This document shows positions 34,044-50,149 of a stretch of 64,000 nt of DNA, piece after piece (position 1 is the first letter of the stretch; each line of letters starts with the position of its first letter). Made by a program: the position numbers and the translations under genes. The notes beneath the pieces were generated by a model. It was not told the origin of the DNA and did no database searches. It was given only the letters and a program-made list of their open reading frames with translations. The stretch lies in the NCBI GenBank assembly GCA_000092065.1, contig CP000585.1. One strand, written 5' to 3'. The stretch is from Ostreococcus lucimarinus (lineage: Eukaryota).

Positions 34044-34149
34044 CGCGCTACAATTTAGCTACCCACGCGTCGACGGCGGCGCTTCGACCGCGCCTACGCG
34101 CGCTACAATTTAGCTACCCACGCGTCGACGGCGGCGCTTCGACCGCGCC
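34044..34149. repeat. tandem duplication (2 x 51 bp, 4-bp spacer) covering the 3' end and stop of the 34103..34777 ORF
   Basis: cgcgctacaatttagctacccacgcgtcgacggcggcgcttcgaccgcgcc occurs at 34044..34094 and again at 34099..34149. Confidence 0.85.
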
Positions 34150-34777
34150 GCCACGCGTCGTCGTCCTCCTTCGACTTGTCCACGCGCAAACTCTCCGCCG
34201 CGCGCGTCCATCCAAACCGTCTCAAAGCCGCGTCCACGGCCAACCCCACGGCGTTACAATCCTCGACCACGCTTTGATTACTCCGATACGCCGCGCGATC
34301 GCCGATGATGTCGCAATCCCCGACCATCGCCGTCGCGTACCTCCGCCCGCGCGCGTCGCCCGCGCCGTCGCCGTTTCGCGCCTTCGCCTCCCTCAAAATC
34401 ATCTTCACCGCGTCCCGCGCCTCCGCCGCCGGTTCGTCGCCCTCCGCCGTCTCCACCACGAACACCACCGTCGCCTCTTCCTCCGTCGCCGCGTCCATCG
34501 CGCGTCTCGTCGCCGTCACCGCGCACGACGCCACCTCCGCGCGTCGTCCCGCGCCCTTCCTCGTCCACGCCGTCGCCACCATCGCGCTCATCTCCCGTCC
34601 CAGCGCGCCGCCGAGGCACACCACGCGCATCGCGTCTTCGCCGTCGCCGTCGCGCGTCGTCGCGCGTCGCGCGCGTCGTCGCGCGCGTCGCGCGATCGCG
34701 TCGAGCACCGCGTCGACGCACGCGCGCAGCGACCGCGCGACGTCCCAGAGCGCGTGCGCGCGCGTCGCGCGCGGCAT
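34103..34777 (-). CDS. hypothetical protein (no family recognised)
   Basis: 224-aa ORF. Its last 15 codons plus the stop are tandemly duplicated just downstream. Confidence 0.3.
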   Translation of the reverse strand: MPRATRAHALWDVARSLRACVDAVLDAIARRARRRARRATTRDGDGEDAMRVVCLGGALGREMSAMVATAWTRKGAGRRAEVASCAVTATRRAMDAATEEEATVVFVVETAEGDEPAAEARDAVKMILREAKARNGDGAGDARGRRYATAMVGDCDIIGDRAAYRSNQSVVEDCNAVGLAVDAALRRFGWTRAAESLRVDKSKEDDDAWRRGRSAAVDAWVAKL

Positions 34778-34792
34778 GCGCGCGCGGATGGC

Positions 34793-34908
34793 GATCGATC
34801 CGCGTCAGCGCGCCGTCGACGCGCGCGTATGCGCAAACAGTCACGGGTCGATCGATCCGCGTCAGCACGCGGCGTCGACGTGTGCGCAAACAGTCACGGG
34901 TCGATCGA
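34793..34908. repeat. tandem direct repeat, 2 x about 58 bp
   Basis: Unit gatcgatccgcgtcagcgcgccgtcgacg...gcgcaaacagtcacgggtc. Two adjacent near-identical copies. Confidence 0.8.
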
Positions 34909-34939
34909 CATCTCGAAATCGCCGCGGCGCTACAGTGGA

Positions 34940-35137
34940 CCCGCTTTGAAGGGTGACGAATCGCCATGTAGCGCCGCGCGATTGCACGCTAAAATCGATA
35001 TAGTGTTGGACCGACCGCGACCGACCGACGGGGCGCGACGGCGCGCGCGCGCGCGAGAACCCGCTTTGAAGGGTGACGAATCGCCATGTAGCGCCGCGCG
35101 ATTGAGCTAAAATCGATATAGTGTTGGACCGATCGCG
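34940..35137. repeat. direct repeat, 2 x about 85 bp with 120-bp period, containing an AT-richer core taaaatcgatatagtgttggacc
   Basis: cccgctttgaagggtgacgaatcgccatgtagcgccgcgcgattg..c.taaaatcgatatagtgttggaccga.cgcgac at 34940.. and 35060.. Confidence 0.85.
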
Positions 35138-35189
35138 ACGGCGCGACGGCGCGCGCGCGCGCGCGAGACGCGCGCGCGCGAGCGATCGC

Positions 35190-35300
35190 GACGCGAGACG
35201 CGGGAGACGATGCGGGAGACGTCGCGACGCGAGACGCGGGAGACGACGCGGGCGACGACGCGGGAGACGACGCGACGCGAGACGCGCGACGCGAGGCGCG
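35190..35300. repeat. degenerate 12-mer tandem array (GACGCGGGAGAC-like) in the 5' leader of the giant gene
   Basis: cgcgagacgcgggagacgatgcgggagacgtcgcgacgcgagacgcgggagacgacgcgggcgacgacgcgggagacgacgcgacgcgagacg. The ORF track reads it as a fake RETSRRETRETTRATTRETTRRE N-terminus. Confidence 0.75.
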
Positions 35301-35323
35301 AACGTCGAGGAGGGCACGGGACG

Positions 35324-38300
35324 ATGCGGCGATGGCGATGCGTCGACGCCGTGGTCGTCGGCGCGGCGTTGATGTTGATGGCGACGGTGACGTCGGCGTT
35401 GTCGGCGCGCGGCGCGGGCGCGCACCGCGATGCGGAGGGCGAAGGCGATGTCGGCGGCGTCGTCGACGACGCGGCGGACGCGAGCCGCGGCGCGAACGAG
35501 ACGGCGGGGAACGACGCGACGGCCGCGCTCGGCTGGGGATGCGACGAGACGCTCCGAGGGTGGAGAGACGAAGGGTATCGAGGGTGCCAGACGAGGACGA
35601 GGAACGGTCGCACGTGTCAGCAGTGGGATTCGCAGTCGCCCCACGGGCACTCGAGACGAAACTGCGCCAAGGGCTCGTGCGGGCGCGGGAACAACTACTG
35701 CAGAAATCCTGACGGCGAACCCACGATCTGGTGCTACACGACGAACAGAAACGTACGCTGGGAGTATTGCGATCCGTTACCTCAACCGGTGCATTGTGCG
35801 GGACGTTGGGGTTCGTACACGTCGTGCGACGCCTTGTGCGGGAGCGGACGCAAATACAAGACATACACGGTGACCAGAAACGCACAGCACGGCGGCCGCT
35901 CGTGCAGTTATAGCAACGGGGCCAAACACTATGCAGATTGTACCACCTCGTGCGCCGCTCCGACGGTTTCCATCGGTAATCCGTTGACGCGCGTGGCGTC
36001 AAACACTGTTGATTTCGGTCTCTCGGTGAAACACTCCGTGGCGTGCGGCGGCGATTGTCTAACGTCAGCTTGGTCGAGGCGATGGATGGTTAAAATCTTC
36101 GCGACGGTCAGAAAAGACGGCGTTTCGTGTTCATCCTACGGCGCATATCTCCCTTGCAAGCGCTGGGACGATTTTCGAGACGACACGACGCACCCATCCC
36201 AGTTACTGGGATTGACCACGGACACGGGCGCGCTCGATCCGGGAACGTACGTGATCGAGTACGTGGCCGTCTTGAATCACTACATCACGAAGCAAGAGCT
36301 GTCGCGCACGACAGGGACGCACACTTTCTCCATCGAGCGCGGTTGCGAATCGATTTTACCTTCGGCGTCGTCGGACAGCGGCGTGGAAAACTCTGAACTC
36401 ACCAAGTACGTCCTGTTGTCGGCGGATGATTTCGTCCGCGCGCCGTGCGACAAACTTCACGACGTGCGGGAATCGATCTTTCGCAAGTACGACACCAATC
36501 CAACCGACGGCGTACTCGATTACGACGAGCTCGACCGCGCGATTCGCGAACAAGGTGGAGACGGGTACATCTTGAAAGTGTGGAACCAGATTCGCCCGCT
36601 TCGTCTGTCGCTCGGCCACTTCATGGAGGCGATCGTCGCGCCGCACACGTGCGCGTCGTCTGAAAGCGTGCAGTCCGTATCTTTTAAGAGCGTCGTGTAT
36701 CCGTCGACCGAGGCTGGTCGAGAGACGACGCGTAAGGATTGCGCGAAAAACGCCGGAGCGATGGCTGTGGACTGGGGGTACGGACCTAAAAATCCACCTA
36801 AGTCGGGAGACACTGTGTGCGTCTTTGTGGACGGCGTCTTGTTTCAAGTCAACGAGCCGAAAAACACAGCGCCGCCGCACAGTAAGGATCATCACTCCGA
36901 GGTGGCTGGACTGTGGACCCTGACAAAAATTACCGATAAGCGACCCGTCGTGGGTGCGATCGGGGACGTGCAACCGTCTCTCGTCGCGCAGTTCACCTTT
37001 GACACCGAGCGCGAGATTGGAGACACCGTCAGAAGCGATCGCATTTTCTCCGCGGCGCCGCTCGCCTCGGGAGAAAAGGCTAGACCGTACATTTCGTATT
37101 CAGGTCAGCATATATCCGCGTGCTCGGGAGCGTCCGGTGGTCAGTGCATCGTAGCACGCGGAGACGGTTTTAACTACGTCGGCGATTCACTCGGCGGCGC
37201 CGTCGCGTTTTCAGCTTGGGTCAGGGTCGCGGAGAGCTCGGCGACGACGTTGATTGAATTCAGCGGTACGGATGGACAACTGAGGAATTCTTTCACGTTG
37301 GTCATGGACTGTTCTTCATCCGCGTGTACGCTGCGCGCGTCGTACGATTCTGTCGGAACTGGTGGCAATCTCGCAAAGAAAGAAATTTCGGCGCCAATGC
37401 GTCAGTGGGTGCTCGTGGGTTTCACGCTCAGCCATAACGCCGGCTTGAAACTGTTCGCATTGCCGGACGATTCGACGTCGACGACGACTGCGAGTCACCC
37501 CTCGTGGCCGAAAGACACGCTTCCAAAACTTCCAAACATCAAGCTCTTCTCAGCGTCGAGGGGCGGTGGTCAGCAGCACATCGACGACGTTCGATTGTAC
37601 GCCGGCGTCATGGACATGGAAATGTTTTTCATCGCGCGCGACTGCGGACGAGGCACGTTGTGCGCAATGCGCGCGCACGCGACTCCTTCGCATCGCCGCG
37701 TCGTCTGCGTGTTCACGCAAGTCAAGGGCGCGAAGACGGGACAGCCTGCGTGCGCCGGCGCGTTGTACTACGACGGAACGGCGATCGACGTACGCGCATC
37801 GATGGATCTCGCTGGAGTCTTTTTTGAGTTTCGAGACACCGCCTGGGAAGAAAAGTCGTTTGAAATCGAGCGTAGAGCGCCGGCGGTCAACGGTAACTTT
37901 GACTCCAAATTTGATACCGTCGTTCTGATTGAAGGCGGGTTGAAGGGCTGCGCCGCAAAGTTCAGCTCCATCACATACATAGATAGGGATGCCTCGTACA
38001 CGCCCTACTCCGAATGGCTGTATCGCATCACGACGAAGAATCCGGATTCAGACGACGCAAATGAGATAACGTACTTGTTGTCTCCCCAGCTCACTTTCCG
38101 CACGCCTTGGATGTCGCAGATCGAGGGACGCGTGCTGGCCGGCGCGTCCACTGAGGGAGTTCGAAACGTGCGAATGTGTGCAGAATTCGACACATTCGTG
38201 ACGCGCACGCCGGCGACTGAAGATTTTCAAGCTGACGTTGAGTATGAGAATCTCGCCGCTTTCAAAAGTGTGACGCATTCAAACAGAGCTCAAACGTCTA

Positions 38301-41300
38301 CGTCATACGTCGTCACGGATGGCGATGATGCGGGCAAAAGCAGCAACGTCGACGCTAACGAGCACATACGAATCAATCTCGGCAGTTGGGCATCCGTGTC
38401 GACTGTGGAGGTGTGCCATAAACGTCTGGAATCATCGGCGACGTCGATGTTCAGCGCGCACGTCCAAGATTACGACCCGGGTAAAAGTACTTACTTTGGA
38501 CACGATTGTTTGATGGACTCGGTGAGGGACGTGTGCGACGAGACGCTCCGAGGCCAGGGAGGCATAGGGTATCGAGGGTGCCAGACGAAGACGAGGAGCG
38601 GCCGCACGTGTCAGCAGTGGGATTCGCAGTCGCCCCACGGGCACTCGAACCGAAATTGCGCCAAGGGCTCGTGCGGGAACAACTACTGCAGAAATCCTGA
38701 CGGCGCACCCACGATCTGGTGCTACACGACGGACAGATACAAACGCTGGGAGTATTGCGATCCGGATCCGTTACCACACGCGTGTTTGACGTACACGTGT
38801 AAAGGCACCGACGTGAATTCGTTTCACGGACAGTACGTCACCGTGAAAGCCCTGACGAAGGCTCAAGTGACGGAAATCAAGGTCAACGGTCGCAAGACGA
38901 AATGCAAGTACACCGCGGTCACCGACGATGACGGCGAATACGCGATGGATCTCAAAGACACCTCAGGCAAGCTTCCGGTGAAAGCGACGCTGCACATCGG
39001 GGCTTACAAGGAGGAAATTTTCCCTGAAACTACGGAAGTCTTGATTGACTCAAAGAGGAACGCTCAAGGACAGTACCCGGTCCCGAAGAGTCAGGCGCAC
39101 AACGTGTTGCTCATTCTTCGAGAGAATTTCGAAACCTCCGAGCTTGGAATGCTTCGAAACGACAGGCGAACCGAAACCACGTCTTCGCCGCACGCGTCGG
39201 CGAATGGAGTTTACGTGGACGAATTTGCAGCTATGCAAGAGCTCGGATACGACGAGTTTGAAAACGCTGATGAATTTGAAAACGGTTTGCAAAACGACCA
39301 AACAGAGTACGATGTCCATCACGATGGCGGAAATGAGACGGCGGGGAACAACACGACGGCCGCGCTCGGCTGGGGATGCGACGAGACGCTCCGAGGGTGG
39401 AGACACGAAGGGTATCGAGGGTGCCAGACGAGGACGAGGAGCGGTCGCACGTGTCAGCAGTGGGATTCGCAGTCGCCCCACAGGCACTCGAGACGAAACT
39501 GCGCCAAGGGCTCGTGCGGGAACAACTACTGCAGAAATCCTGACGGCGAACCCACGATCTGGTGCTACACGACGGACAGACGCAAACGCTGGGAGTATTG
39601 CAATCCGTTACCTCAACCAGTAAACTGCTACGGTTATTGGGGACAGTGGTCGAATGAGTGTACTCCAACTTGCACGAGCGGCCGACGTTACAGATGGAGG
39701 TACTACAGAATCTCGAGATATCCTAGGCATGGCGGTCTGAGTTGCTCGTACAAAAACGGGCAAAAGGGCTGGGGGTACTGTCCGCCGAAACCGTGTCCAG
39801 TGAATTGTGATGGCAGGTTTGGATCGTGGTCGACGTGTAGTGCGAAGTGTGGTTGGGGCAAGAGACAAAAGACGTTCACAATACACACAGCAGCGGCACA
39901 CGGCGGCCAATCGTGTAGTCACAAGAACGGGTACACGGTAACCGAAAACTGTTATTCCCAACACTGTCCGCCACCCCCGCCGCCACCCCCGCCACCAGGC
40001 GCCGCCGAGGTGGAGGAATTCATCGAGTGGGTGCTTTTGAAGGGCGTCGAATCAAATCGAAAAGGGCATGTCGAAAGGACGCTAACAGGGTCAGGATGGA
40101 CGGCGGGTGCTGTGAGTAAACGCGCCATTCGTGGAGCATCCGATACCGTTCGAGGCGTCTCCGCCGTGTGCAAAGAGTCGACGAGCCAACACAGGATGAT
40201 TGCGATGAATTCACAGTCGACTGCGGATTCCACCTCTTACCAAAGTCTTGATTTCGCAATTTACTGTTTTCCTTGGAACTCGGTGAGTTATGTACGAGTC
40301 TATGAGAGAGGCAAAGCTTTTGGGAATGCTGCAAAGGCGTATAGTGAGAGCGCCGTCGTTCAGATCGCGCTCAACGATGCCGGCAAGGTGGAGTATTTCG
40401 TGGACGGTTTGAAGCTCATGACGAGCGATCAGACGGTGACGTATCCACTTCACGTTGATGTGAGCCTACACGAACAAGGCGCGTCGCTGGAGGATGTGCG
40501 CTGGACTAGGAGAGTCTCGTCACCTCCGCCCTCACCTCCACCTTCGCCGCCTCCGTCCCCTCCGCCTTCGCCGCCTCCGCCCCCTCCGCCTTCCCCGCCT
40601 CCGCCGAATCACGAACTCGAGGACGTTGATTTCGACGGATCGGGTAATGTGATGCGGAGCGAGTTGGTCGACTACATTGAAGCTATCACAATATCGTCCG
40701 AAGGTGGCCACGTCATCATTACGGACGATGTATGGGCGAAGCTCGATCGGGATGAAGACGGCGTGCTCGACGCGACTGAATTTAAGGACGTTGTGAACCG
40801 TATCGAGGCGCAACAGTTGGTCGTGGAGCCAATCATCGTGTTCCCACTTCAAGATGCCCAGTACATGTACGATTTCAGCATGTTTCAGACGTCTGACGAC
40901 GCTGCAAATAGCGGCCCGCGCACGGGCCACGTGCTAGAAGGCGGCGAATCGTGTGAAAATTTGATGATTGTGAGAAGTCGCTCCGCCACTCTGCCGTTCG
41001 GAAACGCTCAATGGACAAAATTTTACGAGACATTGCGAGACGAGCAACACCGTTTCGAGTGCAGAAATCTGAGTAAAATCGAGGTTCCAGCAATCGACGT
41101 CGGCGCGGTGGACAGCACGTACGTCATACCCGTGCTCGCGCACAAGAACGGCACGAATTACCTCATACTCGACACCACGTCCGTCGCGGTGCATACGTCG
41201 AACGAGACGAAAGCGTTGGATATGATGCATCGAATGACTCGAGATAACTTTCGTCTGCGCGTTCAAGCCCAAAAGCGGCTTCCGGATATCTTGCACAGCT

Positions 41301-44300
41301 TTAACAAGCCTCCCGTGCCGCGGGGTGCGTTGCCCGAGGCGCCGAGTGACGAGGAAATCGTCGAACAGGTATTTTCAGATCAAGTGGCGTTGGATAGGGT
41401 CACTTTATCAGTCAAGCATAAACGCGTCGAAGAGAAAGACTTTACGGATGACACGACAGTTATCGTAAACGGTGCCGTACTGTTCCCCAGGGATCTCGTC
41501 GAACAATCCAACGACTGCGGACTCTTCAAGGCGACTATTGAAGTATTCGAACCCGAAGGAGAAGTTGAGGAATACCATACGGATGAGCGAGGCTTCTTCA
41601 AGTTTGCTCTCACTCGTGGGAAAACGTTCAACATACGCCCAAAATACAAGAATCACACGATATGCTACGCTGGCAAAACCATAGAGAACGCTGTCGAAGA
41701 CGTGCACACATGCAAAGGACGCAGCGTGGTCAAGACGCTTCCAAACGTTCAAGATGGCAACTTTGTATTTTTCACCGACGTCACGCGAGGTGTCATCGAC
41801 CTTGGACTATACCACGGAGAGTGTGAACGGCGATACAGCGGTGCTGTGTTTAAGATCACGCCGATCAATGGATGCCACGCTCCAAAGTTTGTGAAGAGCG
41901 AAGAAGTTGAAGGGTGGAATGTCGCAAACACCGGGATGAGTGAGGACGCTAAATTTTGGCCGTTCGCCGCCATGGATTACTCGATCAAGCTCGTGTCGGG
42001 GCCTGACGTGAATGGCATCCAACCGTTGATTGAGAATGAGCCGTGGGCGGACGGATGTGGTACGGAGCCTGGCTCGATGGTGGCTTTCTTTCGATCACGA
42101 AACGCCCATGAACGAATGGCGGCCATGCGCGACGACTACGATTTGGTGACAATTCGGTACAAGTATCACGGCTACATTTGCGTTGAGATCGTGGACATTC
42201 CCAAAATACGAGATCCATTGGAAGTCTGTTACGATCCAAACGAAGCGGACGGTAATCTCACGATTCAACATTTCCTCGGAACTACGACTTCCGAAGATTT
42301 GGGCAGCGTGAGCGGTCAGATTCTTCTCCAAGCGAAAGTGTTCGAATTGCATCTTGATCAAGTCGACGGCGAGCCTGTGCTTTCAAAATGCTTTGAAGCG
42401 TTACCTAACAAGGAAGCTCAGACGGGCAGCACTCTGCTCAGTTTCAGACAGTCGGTCACCGATGAAGACGACAATGAGTGCCATCCAAACCGAGGCGGCG
42501 GACCACTGTGTGATTTTGACACGACGATCGAGCCTGCGTCCGAACTCGTCATTTGGAATACAGACGGTGATACCAGCGTGGAGGTCGTCGCTGGTACGCC
42601 TAATCTCGCCGGTAATCATCGACGAACTGTGGAATTCACCATCAAGCGCTTCGATACGTACAAACTCGTCACCGCGTACGCAAAGCGTGAGCTCATACCT
42701 CTGGGCTCGAAACCTCGAGGAGAAGGGCTCTTCGGACCGGACAGTGACGATGTCTACTGGGCGACTGTGCCTTTGGAGGGTTTGGTCTACACCGTCGTGC
42801 ACGATCCACCCGGTGGTCTCTCGTACGCGGAATTATCGACGGGCTCTCAAATTGGACTTCAGTTTGACTTGGTTGGGAAACGTATGGCGAGCGAGGGCAA
42901 AGGTGGGGCGTCGAAGAAACAACTTCCCGAAATCGATAAGTCCGTCGATGTTGGTTTCAACGCCGGATGGATCGCCGAAGGTTCTTTGTCGACGGACCTG
43001 CATTTGATCTCGTCAAAAGGCGAGTTCAAAACTAAAACGGATGGTCCAACGATGCGTATAACGAGCAAAGAAGACAAGGGGTGGAGTCTCGAAACCACGA
43101 CAGAACGAACGATTCGTTCGAGCAAGGACGCAGGTACTCCTGGGAGAGCAGGCGATGTCATTCTCGGCGGTGGTATCGAGCTCGTGTACAAAATATCGGA
43201 CATCTTGGATGTCGTAAACGATGTTCGAACACTCAAAAAGCCTTGCTTGTACGTGTATGGCGAAATCACGTGGTTACCGCGAAAGCCGACGTCGTACATC
43301 ATGAGCGTCGCGTCGATCGAGACACAAGTCATGCCTAATCTGTACTACTTGCGAACGTTGGTGCAGGAAGGTGGCATCGAAGCAGACGGGTCGGAAATGT
43401 TTTATGACTGCGCTTCCGGCGCGACGAGTAAAGAAATGACCAAGTGCACGAAAGAGGATCAAATCGAAGCTTGGATGCAATATCTCGACAACAAGATTGA
43501 CCTTTGGCGTCGAACACTTGAATGGTCTTCTCCGAAAGTGTTCACCATCGATGAGGGTGGTGTGAAGACGAAGTTTTACGAAGCCATCGAGAGAATCACA
43601 AAACCGGCGTCTGATGGTGGTTTTATGCACACGAACTACAAAGTCCAGGTGGAACAATTCAAGAAGGCGTACGCCAGACCGATTAAGGATATTATCGAAG
43701 AGGTCGGCAGTGCTTGGGATTCAAGTTTCTTCATGATGCCTTTCAACGGTATCGGCCCACCACCGTTTTTTGACGACCCGAGAGTAATTGGTGGCGTGGA
43801 TTGGATGCTTGATTCGCGGTACTGGGAGTATGGTAAAGGCGACACAGCTACGTACAGTAGAATCCGTGGGATTACACCTCGGACGGATTCTGACGCGAGA
43901 ATCGCCGCTTTTGCCTCCTTGGATGCCATTGTCAATACCGGAGGCATCATCGACACGGTGACGAAGAATTTAGACGCGCCGAAGAAACTCGCCGCCCGTC
44001 GCAAGGCGGCTGCCGCCGCTGCTGCTAAGATAAGTAAATCGTATGCTGCTAAGCAAAGGCTATTAAAGGCGGCCTCTAAATGGAAAAGTCTTGCAAAGAA
44101 ACCACCGCCGGGATTCATCACGAGATCCGCCCAAAAGCTCACGGCGGCCAAGAACATGGCCACAAAGGCGGCCAAGACCACAGCCGGACAAGTTGCGGGC
44201 GCCATCTTGCTCAGCGCGGCGGTAGCGGGCGCAGTCGCAGCTGGCCCGGCGATGGATCAGATGGGCTACAAGTATGCCGCCTATCCACGCAAGTATTACG

Positions 44301-46834
44301 AGGATGGCATACCGGCATTTGAAGAAAACTTCTTCGACGATGATTCTGGAGTGCTCACAAAAGAAGACCAAGCCAAAGATGAAGACGGGATGCGAGGAGC
44401 CTATACGTGGGGGATGTTCAGTTCGGCGACGAACGATTTGTTGCGACAATTTAAAAGTTGTGCCGGGAGAGAGTGCAATCGCGATGATATCAGAGTCGAA
44501 ACGCTGTCGATGAGCAACACATCTTTCGGCGAAGACTACTTACTTTGGAACACAAATGACGCACCTGATGTGTCGCGGAGGGTCGTGGCGTCCTTCACGG
44601 GTGGACAAGCTGCTACGGGTATGAATGTGACGACGAACGTGAACGCTACAGACGGTGTACCCGACAAGGGGACGTTATTATTGACGTTCGGCGGCGGTGG
44701 TCACACCGCAGATTATTCATTTTCTTCGAATGAAAAGATTGCAGATCTTCACACCAGCCTCGGTGTTCAACTGTCAGCAAAGCAGTCCAACAAATACAAA
44801 CTCAAACTCGGAGGCTTGCTCGGCTCGACCGTTCAACTTGCCATGGCGCTCGGCGGGGTGGACGATGAGGCTGTCTATACCTTCAAAAAGTCATTCGCTG
44901 AAGATCGAACGTTCGCTTGGAACAGACACGCCTCTCTGAAAACGTTGTACAGTCTAGGTGACGCTCAACTCGGAGATAAGTTTGTCGTGCAGGTTGGAGA
45001 AGACGTGCGCTTTGGTACGCCGGTGTTCATCACAAAGGGTGGCAGAAGCTCGTGTCCCGGTGAACCTTTGACGATGTTTCGACAGGCGGGCTTTTCCTTA
45101 TCCAAAGAAACTTCGTTTAACGAAAATCTGAATCCTGATGAAAGTGCTTTGTTACACTTGAAATTGACCAACGAGTCGCCGTACAAGGAAACGTTTCCGC
45201 TCGGAATGCGCATTGTTGACGGTCTCGTGATGTCGGTCCACAAAGTGATTCAGGACATGTACGAAACGCTGGCCAAGGAAGACGTGACAGGGTTGGACGT
45301 TTTGAAAGCCGTCGATAATTCGATCGCGTCGCTCGCTATCGGGAAAGATGCCGACGTCATCAAAACAATGAAAGAAAACGCGCGAGTGGCCGTGGAAGAA
45401 CACTCGGCGACAGCAGTGGACGTCGCAGCGGTGGTTGTACAAGCCTCGCGGAGAGCTCCACCAACGTTTGAAGACTTGCAGAACATCGAGTTCAGTATGG
45501 GTGGAGAGGAAGTATACTTTGGCGACGTATTACCTCTAAAATTTGTGGACGGTGAAGATTTGAAAGTTCAGAAGAAGGTACTTGAGACGTCTTTCGCGCT
45601 TACCGTGACGGCTGCGAGCCCGTCGAGTCTTCGACTGGAGCACGTCGCCGTCGTCGTCATGAGTTTATGCGAACACGAAATCAGCCTAATGTCAAAGTTC
45701 GGTCGAGAACCGATCAGCACGAACACTCTTCCGCTAGGATTGATGACGTGGAATCAAAAGTGTCCGAAAGTCGCCTTCGACGGTTCCACAGTGGCGGATT
45801 ACTTGTTCTCGAGCGTCTCATCTGCCACGCCCAAGCCACTCAAGTTGACCGTCTTCAATCCGGACGGAGCTTTGTTATGGCCTGGCTCTTCGGATGACGT
45901 CCGAGCTATCAACCCGAATCTTCGATTCGTTCGGTTGCAATATCGTCCCGCGAGCGGCGGCGAATGGATCACGGCAAAGTCTGAAGACAGCGATCCAAAG
46001 TTCAGTTACAAGAAAAACCTGTTATGCGACGGGTCACGTCTCGGTGGTTGCACTTTTGACTGGGACGTCAATAACCAGTACGAAAAGCTTCTCAGTGGCT
46101 TTAAGGATAACATTTACGAGTTGAGATTGAAGAACTTTTGCTTTGGCACGGAAAGTCGTCCGATCAGCGCCTTGGCGGACAGCACCGTTCACGAGTACGT
46201 CTCTGATCAAATCCTCACGCTCAGAGTGGACACCAAGACGCCGATTCCCGGCAGGTCGTATCCTTCGTTCAAGCGATTTTACACTGTCGAGTTCCCCGAA
46301 GCGATCGACTGCTCGGATCAAAAAGTTGCCATCACGAAGAAACGCGCATCCTGCGGAGACGACGGGCAAAGCGTCAATCAAGCCGTGAGCGAAGACGCAA
46401 TCAAGTCAGGCTTTGACTTCCAATGCTCCAATAACGAGGTTGGCTTCAAGTGGATGGTTGGATTTCCTAACACTGAAGTGGGTCAGTACGCCGTCGAAGT
46501 GAGCGGTGTTCGTGACGAAGCCGGGAACGCCGCCGCGCCGTTTACCTTCGTCATGGACGCGAACTGCGCGTCTTCTCAAAAGCTGTCCCTCGCGCGCTTC
46601 GGTCTAGGCGCGAAGAAACGGTCGACTGAGGAAACGGGCGATGTGCCAACGAGTGCATTTGACGTTCCAATCACATCGATGCCCGGCACGTGGGTTCTCG
46701 CGGGGTGCTGCCTCGTCGCCGTCTTCGCCGTCGTCGTCGGCGTTTTCCGTCGCGCGCCGCGCGTCGAGGACAAGGAAAAATCTCCACTCTCCTTTGTCGC
46801 CCGTCGACACCCGCCGTACGGCGCGGTGGTGTAA
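35324..46834 (+). CDS. giant secreted/TM-anchored mosaic protein: signal peptide, 3 kringle domains, TSP1 repeats, polyproline (SPPP)n spacers, EF-hand pair, C-terminal TM anchor. Single exon, 3,836 aa.
   Basis: ATG 35324 followed by MRRWRCVDAVVVGAALMLMATVTSALSA. Kringles with CRNPDGEPTIWCYTT..RWEYCDP at three places. TSP1-like WGQWSNECTPTCTSGRRYR and CSAKCGWGKRQKT. PPPPPPPPPPGAAE and SPPPSPPPSPPPSPPPSPPPPPPPSPPPPN. EF-hand-like DFDGSGNVMRSELVDYIE and DRDEDGVLDATEFKDVV. TM near the C-terminus WVLAGCCLVAVFAVVVGVF followed by RRAPR. Confidence 0.8.
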   Translation: MRRWRCVDAVVVGAALMLMATVTSALSARGAGAHRDAEGEGDVGGVVDDAADASRGANETAGNDATAALGWGCDETLRGWRDEGYRGCQTRTRNGRTCQQWDSQSPHGHSRRNCAKGSCGRGNNYCRNPDGEPTIWCYTTNRNVRWEYCDPLPQPVHCAGRWGSYTSCDALCGSGRKYKTYTVTRNAQHGGRSCSYSNGAKHYADCTTSCAAPTVSIGNPLTRVASNTVDFGLSVKHSVACGGDCLTSAWSRRWMVKIFATVRKDGVSCSSYGAYLPCKRWDDFRDDTTHPSQLLGLTTDTGALDPGTYVIEYVAVLNHYITKQELSRTTGTHTFSIERGCESILPSASSDSGVENSELTKYVLLSADDFVRAPCDKLHDVRESIFRKYDTNPTDGVLDYDELDRAIREQGGDGYILKVWNQIRPLRLSLGHFMEAIVAPHTCASSESVQSVSFKSVVYPSTEAGRETTRKDCAKNAGAMAVDWGYGPKNPPKSGDTVCVFVDGVLFQVNEPKNTAPPHSKDHHSEVAGLWTLTKITDKRPVVGAIGDVQPSLVAQFTFDTEREIGDTVRSDRIFSAAPLASGEKARPYISYSGQHISACSGASGGQCIVARGDGFNYVGDSLGGAVAFSAWVRVAESSATTLIEFSGTDGQLRNSFTLVMDCSSSACTLRASYDSVGTGGNLAKKEISAPMRQWVLVGFTLSHNAGLKLFALPDDSTSTTTASHPSWPKDTLPKLPNIKLFSASRGGGQQHIDDVRLYAGVMDMEMFFIARDCGRGTLCAMRAHATPSHRRVVCVFTQVKGAKTGQPACAGALYYDGTAIDVRASMDLAGVFFEFRDTAWEEKSFEIERRAPAVNGNFDSKFDTVVLIEGGLKGCAAKFSSITYIDRDASYTPYSEWLYRITTKNPDSDDANEITYLLSPQLTFRTPWMSQIEGRVLAGASTEGVRNVRMCAEFDTFVTRTPATEDFQADVEYENLAAFKSVTHSNRAQTSTSYVVTDGDDAGKSSNVDANEHIRINLGSWASVSTVEVCHKRLESSATSMFSAHVQDYDPGKSTYFGHDCLMDSVRDVCDETLRGQGGIGYRGCQTKTRSGRTCQQWDSQSPHGHSNRNCAKGSCGNNYCRNPDGAPTIWCYTTDRYKRWEYCDPDPLPHACLTYTCKGTDVNSFHGQYVTVKALTKAQVTEIKVNGRKTKCKYTAVTDDDGEYAMDLKDTSGKLPVKATLHIGAYKEEIFPETTEVLIDSKRNAQGQYPVPKSQAHNVLLILRENFETSELGMLRNDRRTETTSSPHASANGVYVDEFAAMQELGYDEFENADEFENGLQNDQTEYDVHHDGGNETAGNNTTAALGWGCDETLRGWRHEGYRGCQTRTRSGRTCQQWDSQSPHRHSRRNCAKGSCGNNYCRNPDGEPTIWCYTTDRRKRWEYCNPLPQPVNCYGYWGQWSNECTPTCTSGRRYRWRYYRISRYPRHGGLSCSYKNGQKGWGYCPPKPCPVNCDGRFGSWSTCSAKCGWGKRQKTFTIHTAAAHGGQSCSHKNGYTVTENCYSQHCPPPPPPPPPPGAAEVEEFIEWVLLKGVESNRKGHVERTLTGSGWTAGAVSKRAIRGASDTVRGVSAVCKESTSQHRMIAMNSQSTADSTSYQSLDFAIYCFPWNSVSYVRVYERGKAFGNAAKAYSESAVVQIALNDAGKVEYFVDGLKLMTSDQTVTYPLHVDVSLHEQGASLEDVRWTRRVSSPPPSPPPSPPPSPPPSPPPPPPPSPPPPNHELEDVDFDGSGNVMRSELVDYIEAITISSEGGHVIITDDVWAKLDRDEDGVLDATEFKDVVNRIEAQQLVVEPIIVFPLQDAQYMYDFSMFQTSDDAANSGPRTGHVLEGGESCENLMIVRSRSATLPFGNAQWTKFYETLRDEQHRFECRNLSKIEVPAIDVGAVDSTYVIPVLAHKNGTNYLILDTTSVAVHTSNETKALDMMHRMTRDNFRLRVQAQKRLPDILHSFNKPPVPRGALPEAPSDEEIVEQVFSDQVALDRVTLSVKHKRVEEKDFTDDTTVIVNGAVLFPRDLVEQSNDCGLFKATIEVFEPEGEVEEYHTDERGFFKFALTRGKTFNIRPKYKNHTICYAGKTIENAVEDVHTCKGRSVVKTLPNVQDGNFVFFTDVTRGVIDLGLYHGECERRYSGAVFKITPINGCHAPKFVKSEEVEGWNVANTGMSEDAKFWPFAAMDYSIKLVSGPDVNGIQPLIENEPWADGCGTEPGSMVAFFRSRNAHERMAAMRDDYDLVTIRYKYHGYICVEIVDIPKIRDPLEVCYDPNEADGNLTIQHFLGTTTSEDLGSVSGQILLQAKVFELHLDQVDGEPVLSKCFEALPNKEAQTGSTLLSFRQSVTDEDDNECHPNRGGGPLCDFDTTIEPASELVIWNTDGDTSVEVVAGTPNLAGNHRRTVEFTIKRFDTYKLVTAYAKRELIPLGSKPRGEGLFGPDSDDVYWATVPLEGLVYTVVHDPPGGLSYAELSTGSQIGLQFDLVGKRMASEGKGGASKKQLPEIDKSVDVGFNAGWIAEGSLSTDLHLISSKGEFKTKTDGPTMRITSKEDKGWSLETTTERTIRSSKDAGTPGRAGDVILGGGIELVYKISDILDVVNDVRTLKKPCLYVYGEITWLPRKPTSYIMSVASIETQVMPNLYYLRTLVQEGGIEADGSEMFYDCASGATSKEMTKCTKEDQIEAWMQYLDNKIDLWRRTLEWSSPKVFTIDEGGVKTKFYEAIERITKPASDGGFMHTNYKVQVEQFKKAYARPIKDIIEEVGSAWDSSFFMMPFNGIGPPPFFDDPRVIGGVDWMLDSRYWEYGKGDTATYSRIRGITPRTDSDARIAAFASLDAIVNTGGIIDTVTKNLDAPKKLAARRKAAAAAAAKISKSYAAKQRLLKAASKWKSLAKKPPPGFITRSAQKLTAAKNMATKAAKTTAGQVAGAILLSAAVAGAVAAGPAMDQMGYKYAAYPRKYYEDGIPAFEENFFDDDSGVLTKEDQAKDEDGMRGAYTWGMFSSATNDLLRQFKSCAGRECNRDDIRVETLSMSNTSFGEDYLLWNTNDAPDVSRRVVASFTGGQAATGMNVTTNVNATDGVPDKGTLLLTFGGGGHTADYSFSSNEKIADLHTSLGVQLSAKQSNKYKLKLGGLLGSTVQLAMALGGVDDEAVYTFKKSFAEDRTFAWNRHASLKTLYSLGDAQLGDKFVVQVGEDVRFGTPVFITKGGRSSCPGEPLTMFRQAGFSLSKETSFNENLNPDESALLHLKLTNESPYKETFPLGMRIVDGLVMSVHKVIQDMYETLAKEDVTGLDVLKAVDNSIASLAIGKDADVIKTMKENARVAVEEHSATAVDVAAVVVQASRRAPPTFEDLQNIEFSMGGEEVYFGDVLPLKFVDGEDLKVQKKVLETSFALTVTAASPSSLRLEHVAVVVMSLCEHEISLMSKFGREPISTNTLPLGLMTWNQKCPKVAFDGSTVADYLFSSVSSATPKPLKLTVFNPDGALLWPGSSDDVRAINPNLRFVRLQYRPASGGEWITAKSEDSDPKFSYKKNLLCDGSRLGGCTFDWDVNNQYEKLLSGFKDNIYELRLKNFCFGTESRPISALADSTVHEYVSDQILTLRVDTKTPIPGRSYPSFKRFYTVEFPEAIDCSDQKVAITKKRASCGDDGQSVNQAVSEDAIKSGFDFQCSNNEVGFKWMVGFPNTEVGQYAVEVSGVRDEAGNAAAPFTFVMDANCASSQKLSLARFGLGAKKRSTEETGDVPTSAFDVPITSMPGTWVLAGCCLVAVFAVVVGVFRRAPRVEDKEKSPLSFVARRHPPYGAVV
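35507..35776 (+). repeat. kringle-encoding repeat copy 1 (near-identical at nucleotide level to copies 2 and 3)
   Basis: gctcggctggggatgcgacgagacgctccgagggtggagagacgaagggtatcgagggtgccagacgaggacgagg...aacaactactgcagaaatcctgacggcgaacccacgatctggtgctacacgacg. Confidence 0.8.
38536..38766 (+). repeat. kringle-encoding repeat copy 2
   Basis: Same block with a few substitutions (gccaggga..., gacggcgcaccc). Antisense ORF 38432..38644 repeats the MPVGRLRIPLLTRA antisense ORF artefact. Confidence 0.8.
39343..39606 (+). repeat. kringle-encoding repeat copy 3, followed by TSP1 repeats
   Basis: Near-identical to copy 1, including the preceding gacggcgggaac...cgacggccgcgctcggctgggga. Confidence 0.8.
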
Positions 46835-46944
46835 ACGACGGCACAACACCACCGAAGCGGTCGTTCCCGAGATCATCACGAACGACGAATTTTGATTATA
46901 ATTTCCATGAAAACAAATTTTTACGACTTCACTCCGCGGGCGCG

Positions 46945-47946
46945 ATGATTCGAATCGTCACTCGCGCGCGCGACGCGGCGGCGTCGATGGGCGACGGCGC
47001 GACGACGACGACGACGCACCGGTTCGAGCGACGCGGTCTCGTCTTCGACGCGCGCGTGCGGCACGACGCCGAGGCGCGCGCGCTCGACGTCGCGCTGCGT
47101 CGCACCGACCGCGCGCGCGCGACGACGACGCGGTACGCGGGCGCGTTCGACGGCGCGTGGATCGAGCGCGTCGCGAACCGCGCGCGCGCGGCGACTTTCG
47201 ATCGACTTCGAATCGTCGACGGCGAGCGTCGCGCGCGGTCGGAGGCGGAGGCGGAGGCGGTGGGGCGGTTGGCGCGGGCGCTGCGACGAGGGATGGACGG
47301 CGGCGACGACGCGAGCGCGGCGGACGCGATGAGCGAAAAGACGCTGCGGCGGTTGCGGGACGGGCAAGACGCGGACGACGACGATGGCGTCGAGACGCGG
47401 TACGTGTTGATCGCGACGGAGATCGCGGAGGATGGGACGCGGACGCGCGTGCCGTTGCCGCTGGACCGCGTCGACGCGCGAATCGCGGCGGCGGCGGCGC
47501 GGTCGGGGAGGGACGAGACGAAAGCGAACGAGGACGCGGCGGCGCGGCTGAGGGATGCGTTGAGGGCCACGACGCGGGAGCGCGATGAGATGCGGCGCGC
47601 GTTGGAGCGACGAGCGAAGGCGCAGACCAGGGCGGCGTTGAAGGCGCAGGCGGCGGAGGCGAAGACGAAGGCGAAAATCGTCGAGCTCGAGGCGGAAAAC
47701 GAAGCGTTGCGCGAGAACGAAACGAAATTGAAGGTTAAAGTGCGCGATCTCGGGGCGACGTTGAAGTCGATACAGCGCACGCGAGGTGGCGCGGCGATCG
47801 CGGCGGCGCCGGTCGTCGGCCGCCGCGTCGTCGCGTCGCCGCCGCGACGCTCCTTCGTCGACGCCGGGGACGAAATGCTCGATGAAATCGACGCGAGATT
47901 GCACTCGCTGCAGACATTTCTGGCGCGCGCGAAGGACACGAAATGA
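46945..47946 (+). CDS. hypothetical coiled-coil protein (globular N-terminal about 110 aa, then long charged helix)
   Basis: ORF 46690..47946. Start at MIRIVTRARD (ATG 46945), downstream of the giant gene's stop. C-terminal heptad-like KAQAAEAKTKAKIVELEAENEALRENETKLKVKV. Confidence 0.45.
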   Translation: MIRIVTRARDAAASMGDGATTTTTHRFERRGLVFDARVRHDAEARALDVALRRTDRARATTTRYAGAFDGAWIERVANRARAATFDRLRIVDGERRARSEAEAEAVGRLARALRRGMDGGDDASAADAMSEKTLRRLRDGQDADDDDGVETRYVLIATEIAEDGTRTRVPLPLDRVDARIAAAAARSGRDETKANEDAAARLRDALRATTRERDEMRRALERRAKAQTRAALKAQAAEAKTKAKIVELEAENEALRENETKLKVKVRDLGATLKSIQRTRGGAAIAAAPVVGRRVVASPPRRSFVDAGDEMLDEIDARLHSLQTFLARAKDTK

Positions 47947-48022
47947 TTAGATTAGACTACTAGTGTGAATTAGAGACGGCGACAAAATGATGCTAAGCTA
48001 AACGCTACTGTACGTGCTACGT

Positions 48023-50149
48023 TTACGCGAGTCGTTCGCGGCGCTCGCGCTTCGGTCTCTCCGCCGCCTGTCGCTTCGGGAGCTCGCGATCGAAAACGTC
48101 GTCCCACGACTCTCCACGATGCCGTCCACAAAGAATTTTCACCACGGCGTCGATGTTGAGGACGGTGTGCGTTTGCTCGGGCCTGTGTTCGCGAATGGGT
48201 AATCGCGCGCATCGAAACGAACTCGCGTTCGCTCGCGTCAGGCTCGTCCGCATCCCTCGCGTCGCTAAATCGACGATGCCTCCGACCACGTACACCTTAC
48301 TCGCGTCCACTTCATCCAAAACCTCGGAAGCGTCCGGCGACATGTACACGACGTCGCGCGCGTCGAACGCCTCCTCAACGCTTCGCGGGTCCATCTTCAC
48401 CGAAGACCATCGATCGCTGAAGAAAAACTCTCGCGACTCTTCCGCGATGGGACCGCTGAAGTCACAATACGTCATCGCGAGTGCGTCTTCGCGGTGCGCG
48501 ATGCCGACGCACTCGCAGAGCTGCTTCGCCACGCTGCGTCTCGCTCGCGTGGAATCTTGCTCGTACGAGACGTCCACGGCCACGCGCAAGGCGTCCGGGT
48601 TACTAAACCGTTCCGATAGTTCGACGTTGGACTTCTTCTTCGACTTCTTTTCCCATTGCTTCTCGCTCTTGCCCGCGGCGTTCGCGAGCGCGTCTTCGAC
48701 GGTGAACGCGACGCTCGGCTCGAGCGGCGCCGTCGCCGTCGATCCGAGCGCCGTCGTCATGAACGATTTACCGAATCTGCACAAGCTCACCTCGGTGACG
48801 TTCTCGTACCCCAAAGCGCGCATTTCGTGCGCGATGGGAACACCGCTGATGAAGACGTGCCTCTCGGCGACGTCGCGAAACTTTTCAAGCGCGGGCGCGT
48901 ACTCGGACGCGCTCGCGCCCGGCGCGCTTCTCCCGTCGCCGTCGCCGCCGCCGAGCGCGACGCGGCGACCGAACGGTAAATTCGCGACGAGCGCGCGCAC
49001 GCGCTTACCTTTGCACCCGTACGCATCGTCAAAAGCACCAGGAACCAAAGCGTCGCGCTCGATCACGTTCGGCATCGCCGATGACTCGGGCGCGCGCGCG
49101 ACAAAGTGGCTGAGATTTTGCTTGGCCATGACGACGGCGCCCGGCGACACGTCGCCGCCCGCCGCGGCGAACCCACGCGTCCACGCCGCGTGGAGCATCG
49201 TTCCCGACCCACAACACGGATCGACGATGACGCTGTCACCGCTTCGAGCGTCGAACGCGCGCGGGTCGTGCGCTGAGGCGACGTTGACGCACGCGAGCGC
49301 GATTTCCGCGCGCGTCCCCGCGCTGAAATGCCGCGGCTTTCTCGCCCAATCCACCGCGCGCGCGCTCGGGCTCGACGGCGACGGCGCGTACGTCACCAAA
49401 CCGAACACGTACCCCCCCAAACCCTCCACCACCGCGAATCGCATCGCGTTCGACCGCTCGTCTCGCGAATCGTCGAGCCCGCGCGCGCTCCATCGCGCCA
49501 CGACGCCGCGAAATCGCCTCGACACCTCGTCGCTCGACATCCTCCTCGCGTTCCTCGCCACGCAGTCGTGATAAAACGCCACCGCGCGCGTCTCCACGCG
49601 CACTCTCATTCCCTCGACCGTCTCCAGCAGCTCCTCCGCGCTCGCCGCGCACGCCAACGGCATGATCTCCGCCCGCGTCCCCGCGCACGCCCGCGTCGTC
49701 CCGTCGCCGCCGTTCGCCGCCGCGAACATCCCCGCCTCCATCGCCCGCGCCGCCGGCCTCGTCACCGCCGCCACTTCGCACGCGTACGCGTTGTACAGAT
49801 TCTCGTTCTTGTGCGTCAGCACGATCCTCGGCGTCGTCGTCGTCGTCGTCTCGCGCTTCGTCGTCGTCCCGCCCGCGTCGTCCCTCGCCCACAGCCTCGC
49901 GCACGCCGCCGCGCCCTCGCGCGACGACAGCGCCCAGATCGCTAACACGTCGTCGTCGCACGCGCGTTCGCGGTCGTTCATTCGCACGCGGTCGCGCGCG
50001 CGCGCGAACTCGTCGTGGCGCGCGTCGACGATCGCCGTCGGTGGAAACCGCCCACCCTTCGAGCTCTTCGACGCGCGCGCGCGCACGCGACGACGCGCCG
50101 CGCGGGGCATCGACGCGCGTACGTACGATCGCGCCATCGATCGCGCCAT
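48023..50149 (-). CDS. bifunctional-looking tRNA methyltransferase: N-terminal class-I amino-MTase domain (Trm11/THUMPD/RlmL-like) fused to a C-terminal TRM10-type SPOUT m1G9 MTase domain
   Basis: ORF 48023..51043. N-terminal about 300 aa are Arg-rich and rejected. Start tentative at one of the Mets at 50149, 50137 or 50110. SAM motif I VIVDPCCGSGT and motif IV ALVANLPFG (NPPY-type). C-terminal AVDVSYEQD..VAKQLCEC, DVVYMSPDASEVLDEVDASKVYVVGGIVD, CARLPI and VLNIDAVVKIL collinear with TRMT10A. Confidence 0.62.
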   Translation of the reverse strand: MARSMARSYVRASMPRAARRRVRARASKSSKGGRFPPTAIVDARHDEFARARDRVRMNDRERACDDDVLAIWALSSREGAAACARLWARDDAGGTTTKRETTTTTTPRIVLTHKNENLYNAYACEVAAVTRPAARAMEAGMFAAANGGDGTTRACAGTRAEIMPLACAASAEELLETVEGMRVRVETRAVAFYHDCVARNARRMSSDEVSRRFRGVVARWSARGLDDSRDERSNAMRFAVVEGLGGYVFGLVTYAPSPSSPSARAVDWARKPRHFSAGTRAEIALACVNVASAHDPRAFDARSGDSVIVDPCCGSGTMLHAAWTRGFAAAGGDVSPGAVVMAKQNLSHFVARAPESSAMPNVIERDALVPGAFDDAYGCKGKRVRALVANLPFGRRVALGGGDGDGRSAPGASASEYAPALEKFRDVAERHVFISGVPIAHEMRALGYENVTEVSLCRFGKSFMTTALGSTATAPLEPSVAFTVEDALANAAGKSEKQWEKKSKKKSNVELSERFSNPDALRVAVDVSYEQDSTRARRSVAKQLCECVGIAHREDALAMTYCDFSGPIAEESREFFFSDRWSSVKMDPRSVEEAFDARDVVYMSPDASEVLDEVDASKVYVVGGIVDLATRGMRTSLTRANASSFRCARLPIREHRPEQTHTVLNIDAVVKILCGRHRGESWDDVFDRELPKRQAAERPKRERRERLA

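Follow-up and report, generated by a model that had tools for sequence, protein, structure and literature searches.

A giant predicted type I surface protein of Ostreococcus with kringle and thrombospondin-like modules inserted into a conserved backbone

A stretch of 64,000 nucleotides from the Ostreococcus lucimarinus genome (contig CP000585.1 of assembly GCA_000092065.1; the whole stretch is referred to here as the window, and all positions are given in its coordinates) contains an 11.5-kb open reading frame (ORF) at 35324-46834 on the forward strand that encodes a protein of 3,836 residues. The product is very probably a giant type I modular surface protein, which belongs to a conserved family and into which kringle and thrombospondin type 1 (TSP1) modules have been inserted. 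Its predicted architecture comprises a signal-like N-terminus, an ectodomain of ~3,760 residues, a single transmembrane (TM) helix and a tail of 28 residues. The best explanation overall, and one we consider reasonably likely, is that it is a giant type I membrane glycoprotein of the Ostreococcus cell surface composed of a stalk and binding heads. The features of the gene are listed below, with residue numbers referring to the 3,836-residue product.

35324-46834, forward strand: complete ORF of 3,836 codons plus stop, from the translation; collinear at 98.3% identity with the independent metagenome contig L008.
35324-35407, forward strand: signal-peptide-like N-terminus, residues 1-28, with a hydropathy peak at residues 9-27.
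35540-35797, forward strand: kringle 1, residues 73-158, by Pfam PF00051 and alignment to plasminogen K1-K5.
35795-35953, forward strand: TSP1-like module a, residues 158-210; TSP1_spondin E=3.9e-7; TSP_1 21.1 bits against a threshold of 21.6.
35951-38521, forward strand: backbone block A, residues 210-1066; outside any Pfam family; ten or more long relatives align to it at 30-41% identity.
38534-38785, forward strand: kringle 2, residues 1071-1154, by Pfam; inserted between blocks A and B.
38777-39133, forward strand: backbone block B, residues 1152-1270; 40-52% identity in relatives; weak match to Pfam BIg21 (E=0.0024).
39134-39373, forward strand: acidic linker ahead of kringle 3, residues 1271-1350, from the translation; no counterpart in relatives.
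39377-39628, forward strand: kringle 3, residues 1352-1435, by Pfam; 92% nucleotide identity to kringle 2.
39626-39967, forward strand: TSP1-like modules b and c, residues 1435-1491 and 1495-1548; TSP1_spondin E=1.3e-9, 38.6 bits against a threshold of 41; also TSP1_ADAMTS and TSP_1.
39968-39997, forward strand: Pro10 spacer, residues 1549-1558, from the translation.
40016-40519, forward strand: unassigned domain of ~170 residues, residues 1565-1732; no Pfam match; blastp aligns only P0129 among the full-length relatives examined.
40517-40606, forward strand: (SPPP)n extensin-like spacer, residues 1732-1761, from the translation.
40616-40813, forward strand: EF-hand pair, residues 1765-1830, with loops at 40628-40663 and 40745-40780; within the conserved backbone.
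40826-43603, forward strand: backbone block C, residues 1835-2760; predicted tandem transthyretin/CnaB-like sandwiches (e.g. 41459-41647) and the first half of the DPPG core.
42800-42817, 43142-43192 and 43268-43297, forward strand: core motifs in block C, being HDPPG, GRAGDVILGGGIELVYK and TWLPRKPTSY respectively.
43604-44548, forward strand: variable Ala/Lys-rich linker, residues 2761-3075, which splits the DPPG core.
44549-46690, forward strand: backbone block D, residues 3076-3789; carries the second core half, then predicted Ig-like sandwiches and a helical insert.
44675-44701 and 44972-45064, forward strand: core motifs in block D, being LLTFGGGG and GDKFVV...GGRSSCPGE respectively.
46691-46747, forward strand: single TM helix, residues 3790-3808; hydropathy 2.7; position conserved in relatives.
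46748-46831, forward strand: basic cytoplasmic tail of 28 residues ending YGAVV-COOH, compared with relatives P0002-P0037 and P0302-P0307.
35161-35304, no strand: 12-nt tandem repeat (GACGCGGGAGAC-like, ~12 units), from a repeat search; just upstream of the likely start codon.

Most of the protein is a backbone that is shared with many other giant proteins. A search with the C-terminal 1,944 residues recovers 37 unnamed marine-metagenome proteins of 1,600-3,400 residues at 33-60% identity, and mapping of the relatives gives a conserved block order of A, B, the EF-hand pair, C, the variable linker, D, and the TM helix with its short tail. Pfam scans of the protein as ten overlapping segments leave approximately 2,800 residues unmatched, even with the limit relaxed to E<=1. 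The initial annotation had set aside about 2,000 residues as unassigned Cys-poor sequence; the lack of Pfam matches holds, but the unassigned part is larger, and its conservation as a family backbone had been missed. Family alignments contain dozens of invariant residues, including HDPPG (residues 2493-2497), GRxGDVILGGGxELxY, TWLPRKPTSY, LLTFSGGG and GDKFVVxVxxDxRFGTPxFxTKGGRSxCPGE, and HDPPG is invariant in all 33-34 aligned relatives as well as in the bacterial homologues described below. The contigs on which the relatives lie encode eukaryotic genes (mTERF, PIG-O, TBCC, MIF4G and HSF) in the same compact style. Judged by its sequence, the backbone is that of a predicted family of giant type I membrane proteins of marine picoeukaryotes, and these unassigned two-thirds are the evolutionarily primary part of the protein, with the kringle/TSP1 cassettes inserted into them. 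Block A also contains a lone EF-hand-like loop at 36491-36532 (Pfam EF-hand_6, E=0.06), and its stretch at 37169-37627 reads like a LamG/ConA domain and might be one. A hydrophobic segment at residues 2957-2975 (44192-44248) was considered as a second TM helix and rejected, being weak (1.87) and not conserved.

The short tail is conserved as well: YG occurs within the last 10 residues of all 38 relatives that have a TM helix, and 33 of these 38 end exactly in YGxxX-COOH. The tail of the window protein (RRAPRVEDKEKSPLSFVARRHPPYGAVV) is basic and has no Trp, and among members the motif falls mostly outside the canonical YxxPhi rule. Its conservation implies a putative dedicated cytosolic partner for sorting, endoplasmic reticulum export or anchoring.

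The modules that interrupt the backbone differ in how firmly they can be assigned. Pfam PF00051 recognizes three kringle stretches at E=1.2e-51 and 173.4 bits, well over the cut-off of 34.3, and a single copy scores 65.7 bits; each copy has the six conserved Cys and the NYCRNPD / WC[YF]T / RWEYC signature, together with three extra Cys. The three kringles proposed in the initial annotation are thus bona fide PF00051 members. Their PDB sequence matches are plasminogen, angiostatin, HGF, apolipoprotein(a), prothrombin and ROR2, and in alignment the residues with which K1 and K4 of plasminogen bind lysine (D55, E57, W62, Y64, R71 and W72, in the established plasminogen numbering) are retained in them. 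They therefore look equipped with plasminogen-type lysine-binding residues forming a putative pocket.

The TSP1 assignment is less secure. Two repeats had been proposed, and three copies are present (WGQWSNECTPTCTSGRRYRWRYYR; FGSWSTCSAKCGWGKRQKT; WGSYTSCDALCGSGRKYKTYT), each of which on inspection has the pattern WxxW(S)xC ... CSxxCGxG ... with a basic (R/K) ladder and about six Cys in 50-60 residues. Their scores lie below the curated thresholds of PF00090, PF19028 and PF19030 (38.6 against 41, 30.7 against 41, 21.1 against 21.6 and 19.4 against 23.8 bits), and a direct PDB sequence search with phmmer gave no match to them; we regard the three as probable TSP1-like modules. The EF-hand pair has a similar status. 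Both loops (DFDGSGNVMRSE and DRDEDGVLDATE) are canonical 12-residue loops by inspection, with D1, D/N3, D/S5, G6, a hydrophobic residue at 8 and E12, and the pair is kept in more than 60 relatives, so that this part of the earlier assignment stands. The Pfam scores again fall short of the curated thresholds (PF13499, 23.1 against 30 bits, E=9.5e-5; EF-hand_1, 22.9 against 25.4 bits), with E-values for the pair between 5e-5 and 1e-4, and Pfam EF-hand matches are found in four of 11 long members. The Pro10 and (SPPP)n spacers are present as annotated, and at 10 and 30 residues these runs make up ~1% of the protein.

Comparison with the relatives shows where the cassettes have entered. No kringle was found in the retrieved relatives, either with phmmer or by Pfam on ten long members, and no counterpart of TSP1-like modules b and c was found in the relatives examined by phmmer and alignment, module a alone being common to P0302 and P0129. 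Every relative that spans the junction of blocks A and B has a kringle-sized gap exactly at the kringle 2 site. P0129 (3,444 residues) aligns from TSP1-like module a onward and skips kringle 2, as well as the acidic linker, kringle 3, TSP1-like modules b and c and Pro10. Because no relative that has the relevant regions carries a kringle, the comparison shows the three kringles and two of the three TSP1-like modules as putative lineage-specific insertions. Kringle 1 with TSP1-like module a resembles kringle 3 with TSP1-like module b, including the preceding NETAGN..ALGWGC leader, and the two look like copies of one cassette.

The initial annotation had treated kringles as foreign to green algae. 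This view does not survive the searches: the best external match to the kringle cassette, at 80% identity, is a Micromonas commoda protein (NCBI 'predicted protein, partial') that carries PF00051, and hundreds of mosaic proteins in the marine-metagenome, MMETSP and EukProt collections carry kringles, many of them short (P0182-P0301 and P0468-P0576). The partner domains in these proteins are LamG_3, F5/8-C, PA14, SRCR, CUB, EGF, WSC, LDLa and Gal-lectin, and one such mosaic protein is from the diatom Corethron hystrix. With kringles so widespread in marine protists, it is less surprising to meet animal domains in an alga. In the literature, kringles together with Ostreococcus, Micromonas or Mamiellophyceae yielded incidental co-mentions only, and no paper on Mamiellales kringles was found. 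Several of the kringle mosaic proteins have been auto-named 'integrin beta 3' by the Joint Genome Institute, which looks like a mis-annotation.

We propose that the backbone would form a long multi-domain stalk on the plasma membrane of the wall-less cell, which the EF-hand pair and the lone EF-like loop of block A would stiffen or regulate with seawater Ca2+. Runs of the Pro10 and (SPPP)n type are typical hydroxyproline (Hyp)-O-glycosylation sites of the green lineage, and here they would be probable sites of this modification and rigid spacers. The kringles and TSP1-like modules would serve as distal ligand-binding heads with a specificity of the lineage's own, in contacts between cells, with particles or with viruses, and the YGxxX tail would link the protein to cytosolic sorting or cortical anchoring machinery. 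That binding or adhesion is the primary function is an evenly poised proposition, and an adhesin or receptor is plausible as a predicted function.

Structure prediction bears on the stalk. AlphaFold2 models of blocks C and D, computed with family alignments, have predicted local distance difference test scores (pLDDT) of 73 and 72, respectively, and the confidently predicted backbone is shown in them as tandem CnaB/transthyretin-like and Ig-like sandwiches, the predicted tandem beta-sandwich fold of fibrillar adhesin stalks; the likenesses in fold include the S-layer protein SbsC. PDB sequence searches with the family profiles gave weak generic EF-hand matches only (calmodulin, S100 and calbindin; best E=0.0078). 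Such predicted tandem sandwiches are likewise found in bacterial fibrillar adhesins and pilin shafts (SdrD, UafA, SpaA, SiiE and MpIBP), which also have in common with the window protein their Ca2+-binding elements, very large size and distal ligand-binding modules. Unlike these, the window protein is eukaryotic and has a TM anchor in place of sortase, type I secretion system or type IX secretion system (T9SS) attachment or export, and sequence identity is 8-13%. The protein is thus fibrillar-adhesin-like by its predicted fold, with no common ancestry beyond generic sandwiches.

Several points weigh against the proposed stalk with binding heads. The signal peptide and TM helix were called from a hydropathy scan only, and so the topology is based on hydropathy alone. 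The scores of the TSP1-like modules and EF-hands are under the Pfam gathering thresholds, as given above. In the models, pLDDT drops below 50 at and beyond HDPPG (residues 677-757 of block C) and again over residues 1-141 of block D, which are the most conserved stretches of the family, and the DPPG core is thus modelled at low confidence, with no structural or Pfam match; the poor confidence of the separately folded core halves is probably due to the ~300-residue linker that separates them. The invariant His, Asp, Ser, Cys, Glu and Arg residues of the core could point to catalysis or self-processing as opposed to a passive stalk. Lastly, the contig of the closest relative, P0002 (58% identity), ends upstream of its EF-hand pair, so that its N-terminal half is absent, and the matches listed in the three homologue searches are all no longer than ~1.75 times the query, which makes very long orthologues invisible to short queries; for both reasons kringle-bearing orthologues may exist in other Ostreococcus species.

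A structural role has to be weighed against one in binding. Instead of a specific adhesin, the protein could chiefly be a building element of the glycocalyx or matrix that coats a naked cell; the conserved backbone would then make up a protective layer at the surface, with the kringle/TSP1 modules cross-linking the coat. The conservation of the family across many picoeukaryote contigs, the stalk-like sandwich folds with their SbsC likeness, the Pro-rich spacers and the EF-hand pair are all compatible with such a role. We nonetheless consider it unlikely, as the single TM anchor and conserved tail motif suggest regulated trafficking, and no self-assembly or oligomerization domain was detected.

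The known systems closest to a stalk with binding heads each resemble the window protein in part. The metazoan kringle proteins (plasminogen, apolipoprotein(a), HGF and ROR/MuSK) have the same NYCRNPD...WC[YF]T...RWEYC signature, and the window kringles are roughly 45-50% identical to those of plasminogen, as judged from alignments. Unlike the metazoan proteins, the window protein has no protease, PAN/apple or kinase domain, and its kringles have three extra Cys each and a shorter middle loop and occur as single inserts in an unrelated giant backbone. The apicomplexan TRAP/MIC2 adhesins likewise have type I topology, TSP1-type modules and a short tail in which an aromatic residue close to the C-terminus is conserved, and some Cryptosporidium TSP proteins combine TSP1 with kringles. 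However, Pfam scans of the whole window protein and of its segments found no vWA/A-domain; the TRAP/MIC2 tail is acidic with a subterminal Trp, whereas that of the window protein is basic, ends in YGxxX and has no Trp; and the window protein is ~5 times larger, consisting mostly of a backbone that those adhesins lack. No homology to apicomplexan adhesins was seen outside the shared modules. Lacking the vWA domain and differing in its tail, the window protein is not a TRAP/MIC2-type adhesin.

Within the green lineage, the Chlamydomonas sexual agglutinins and other algal Hyp-rich glycoproteins are giant surface glycoproteins with Ser-Pro(n) Hyp-O-glycosylation motifs, and as giant green-lineage surface proteins of 3,400-3,900 residues with such motifs they are similar to the window protein. 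Their shafts run to hundreds of residues, whereas the Pro-rich runs here are of 10 and 30 residues and the rest is made up of globular modules; because these runs are ~1% of the length, the window protein is not a shaft protein of the Hyp-rich glycoprotein or extensin type. No sequence likeness to these glycoproteins was seen, although no search aimed at it was made. The EC domain of SPARC/BM-40 has a canonical EF-hand pair in an extracellular protein, as is the case here, but the window protein has no follistatin-like or Kazal module, and no significant SPARC match was present among the PDB hits of the family profiles.

A second strain provides a view of how the modules vary. The independent metagenome contig L008, 653 kb in length, has the same neighboring genes, is collinear with window positions 25312-45850 at 98-99% identity, and has three kringles at the same relative positions. 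Several 1-2-nt indels break the L008 gene, which gene callers therefore report as four separate genes; since the naming of the assembly suggests long reads, the indels may be errors. The kringle/TSP1 modules differ between the window and L008 by 1.7-3.6% and the backbone blocks by 0.2-0.4%, with 36 nonsynonymous and five synonymous differences in the modules (35540-35797, 38534-38785 and 39377-39967). The same 6-nt insertion, GCGGGC, is present in kringles 2 and 3 of L008, so that both read 'GRG' like kringle 1. The divergence of the modules suggests gene conversion among copies, diversifying selection or assembly errors as candidate causes.

Diversifying selection would be expected if the protein were at the interface of host and virus or host and grazer, for example as a prasinovirus receptor or decoy, and the concentration of differences in modules that are themselves lineage-specific fits this role. 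We give it only a slight chance. The L008 sequence appears to come from a long-read metagenome assembly and to contain indel errors, and conversion between near-identical kringles (kringles 2 and 3 share the 6-nt indel as well as their 92% identity) could give the same pattern. Moreover, IMG/VR pattern scans for the backbone and for the kringle cassette gave no viral relatives, and the gene lies among housekeeping genes in a region that is not obviously atypical.

The DPPG core, in two halves within blocks C and D, has a distribution well beyond the algal family. When compared with 1.84 billion representatives, the block C profile matches 221 proteins at E<1e-3, and beyond the close family the matches cover the HDPPG region only. 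Many of the distant relatives are ~2,000 residues long and have the T9SS sorting domain of Bacteroidota (Por_Secre_tail/TIGR04183) at the C-terminus, and they also carry CarboxypepD_reg, Laminin_G_3, Big_5 or fn3 domains; Pfam and NCBIfam scans of these relatives name the flanking domains and never the core. The distant relatives also include KAJ1452456.1, annotated as a hypothetical protein in Pelagophyceae sp. CCMP2097. Local hidden Markov models show that a CarboxypepD_reg-like sandwich, the HDPPG module and the first ~200 residues of block D are collinear in the distant relatives, and a stretch of block A is also common to some eukaryote-like ones. The block D motif has the bacterial consensus 'GDYFSVDI…GTSSCPHE' against the algal …GDxFxV…GGRSxCPGE, and the halves of the core are ~20-70 residues apart in bacteria compared to a variable linker of ~300 residues in the alga.

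By profile, the relatives P0393, P0409, P0420, P0422 and P0344 have collinear HDPPG, GDxxxGGGxE and GDKFVV...GGRSxCPGE motifs, as does the window protein, and a C-terminal TM helix with a tail ending in YGxxX (YGAVV in the window) marks a eukaryotic subfamily. The T9SS cargo proteins P0422, P0420 and P0409 (~2,000 residues) and KAJ1452456.1 are true homologues in the core, with the same module order; the bacterial proteins have a Por_Secre_tail end where the window protein has a TM helix and YG tail, and unlike it they have no kringle, TSP1 or EF-hand pair. The bacterial relatives are assigned to Bacteroidota solely through the T9SS sorting domain, because a GTDB genome scan with P0422 gave no match. 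Their gene neighborhood in two contigs (L009 and L010) consists of housekeeping genes and one 503-residue gene with no Pfam match, which lies directly upstream of the T9SS cargo gene in both (L009 590-2101; L010 8375-9886) and whose product may be a functional partner of the cargo protein. From these matches the true family of the window protein appears to be an unnamed 'DPPG-core' family, and its core an apparently undescribed extracellular module, older than the algae, that occurs both in secreted surface proteins from marine Bacteroidota and in surface proteins from two or more algal lineages unrelated to each other. We think it rather improbable that the larger picture applies, in which the DPPG core is an ancient domain family, possibly acquired by transfer from bacterium to alga, and the Ostreococcus protein is the principal contact organ (gamete adhesin or prasinovirus receptor), with recently acquired, gene-converting heads under diversifying selection.

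The invariance of HDPPG in relatives and bacteria alike, alongside other invariant Ser, Asp, Glu, Arg and Cys residues, raises the further prospect that the core is an autoprocessing or enzymatic module, which would for example cleave at the invariant Asp-Pro and so shed or activate the ectodomain in the manner of GDPH, SEA and GAIN. No Pfam family or solved structure accounts for the core, which leaves room for this idea; the prospect nevertheless seems distant, as it derives from motifs only, no likeness in sequence or fold to a known self-cleaving domain or hydrolase was found, and the model is of low confidence exactly at the core.

The gene model itself is well founded. The initial annotation had described one uninterrupted ORF at 35324-46834, and the translation contains no stop and includes all of the peptides quoted from it; the hydrophobic segments at residues 9-27 and 3790-3808 similarly bear out the signal peptide and single C-terminal TM helix. 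The stop-free ORF extends upstream to 35210 (35210-46834, forward strand; 3,874 residues from its first ATG in the ORF list and translation), but the Met at 35324 is the better choice of start, because the 38 upstream codons (MRETSRRETRETT...) sit within the tandem repeat at 35161-35304 and because the sole N-terminal hydrophobic segment directly follows that Met. The Arg/Glu/Thr-rich (RETx) extension from the ATG at 35210 is a spurious product of the 12-nt repeat, whose copy number is one unit different in L008. The N-terminus of relative P0302 resembles the signal-like N-terminus of the window protein. Neither the 3,836-residue nor the 3,874-residue product was found as an exact entry in the protein collection or gene index.

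Collinearity with L008 also speaks to the concern that the ORF might be an assembly chimera. In addition, a short-read contig contains the C-terminal 1,577 residues (the 3' 4.7 kb) uninterrupted at 99% identity, and a homologue of 3,395 residues is a 'complete' MMETSP transcript ORF; for these three reasons a chimera or gene fusion is very unlikely. An artefact of any kind, be it chimera, fusion of neighboring genes or pseudogene, has a negligible probability, since the splitting of the L008 region by 1-2-nt indels is set against an ORF that is stop-free over 11.5 kb, collinear throughout with L008 and intact over its 3' 4.7 kb in short reads, and against long relatives in which the order of blocks A to D is unchanged. 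We thus regard the gene as real, nuclear and made up of a single exon, and as belonging to a lucimarinus-like picoalga of the genus Ostreococcus. A foreign origin of the whole gene, by viral or other horizontal transfer, was considered and rejected: its GC content at third codon positions is 0.55-0.75, within or just below the 0.61-0.82 of neighboring housekeeping genes and in line with the remaining long genes of the window, and members of the family occur broadly on picoeukaryote contigs.

The neighboring genes are long uninterrupted ORFs with ordinary eukaryotic nuclear functions, including GFAT, a DEAH helicase, a DOCK-family guanine nucleotide exchange factor, a Brr2-like helicase, an SNF2/F-box protein and trehalase, as well as Hus1, NIP7, Fe-ADH, a bicarbonate transporter and ribose-5-phosphate isomerase. 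The trehalase is identical to an NCBI sequence on an 841-kb contig, falls in the same 90% cluster as XP_001418096 of O. lucimarinus CCE9901 and is found in 596 blocks of the metagenome index. The source is an abundant, lucimarinus-like Ostreococcus of the Mamiellales, in agreement with the earlier guess, made from the letters of the sequence, of a green alga.

Three further features of the window were noted. Long ORFs on opposite strands at 18446-20971 (reverse) and 19098-21860 (forward) overlap by ~1.9 kb; the former has a ribose-5-phosphate isomerase domain only at residues 646-828, the latter carries the bicarbonate-transporter domain, and the overlapping extensions at 18446-21860 are probably GC-rich read-through and not real coding sequence. 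The reverse-strand ORF at 52032-57347 encodes 1,771 residues with an F-box and an SNF2-family helicase domain that has a long insertion (SNF2 profile at residues 281-894). Base composition is strongly heterogeneous, with 52-57% and 65-71% GC alternating in 2-kb windows (22000-28000, 32000-36000, 46000-52000 and 62000-64000); the body of the large gene ranks among the parts of the window poorest in GC, and the sequence flanking it among the richest.

No free-living eukaryote is smaller than Ostreococcus, which has neither wall nor scales, and to our knowledge almost nothing has been established about how its surface recognizes partners, particles or its abundant viruses. A gene of 11.5 kb is very large for so compact a genome, and a conserved, membrane-anchored surface giant is an obvious candidate for such recognition roles. 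What is new here is an undescribed core, together with a module set that is unusual for a green alga, in a modular adhesin-like surface protein. The module of ~500-700 residues from HDPPG to GGRSxCPGE ties algal surface proteins to Bacteroidota T9SS cargo, and the universal YGxxX tail implies a putative dedicated cytosolic partner. The insertion of kringle cassettes into an already existing intronless gene, with apparent gene conversion among them, bears on the view that in animals such modules spread mainly by exon shuffling. With its function a predicted one, the protein is best viewed as a promising lead and not yet as a discovery; as an experimental lead it may be of value for work on the surface biology, mating and virus receptor of Ostreococcus.

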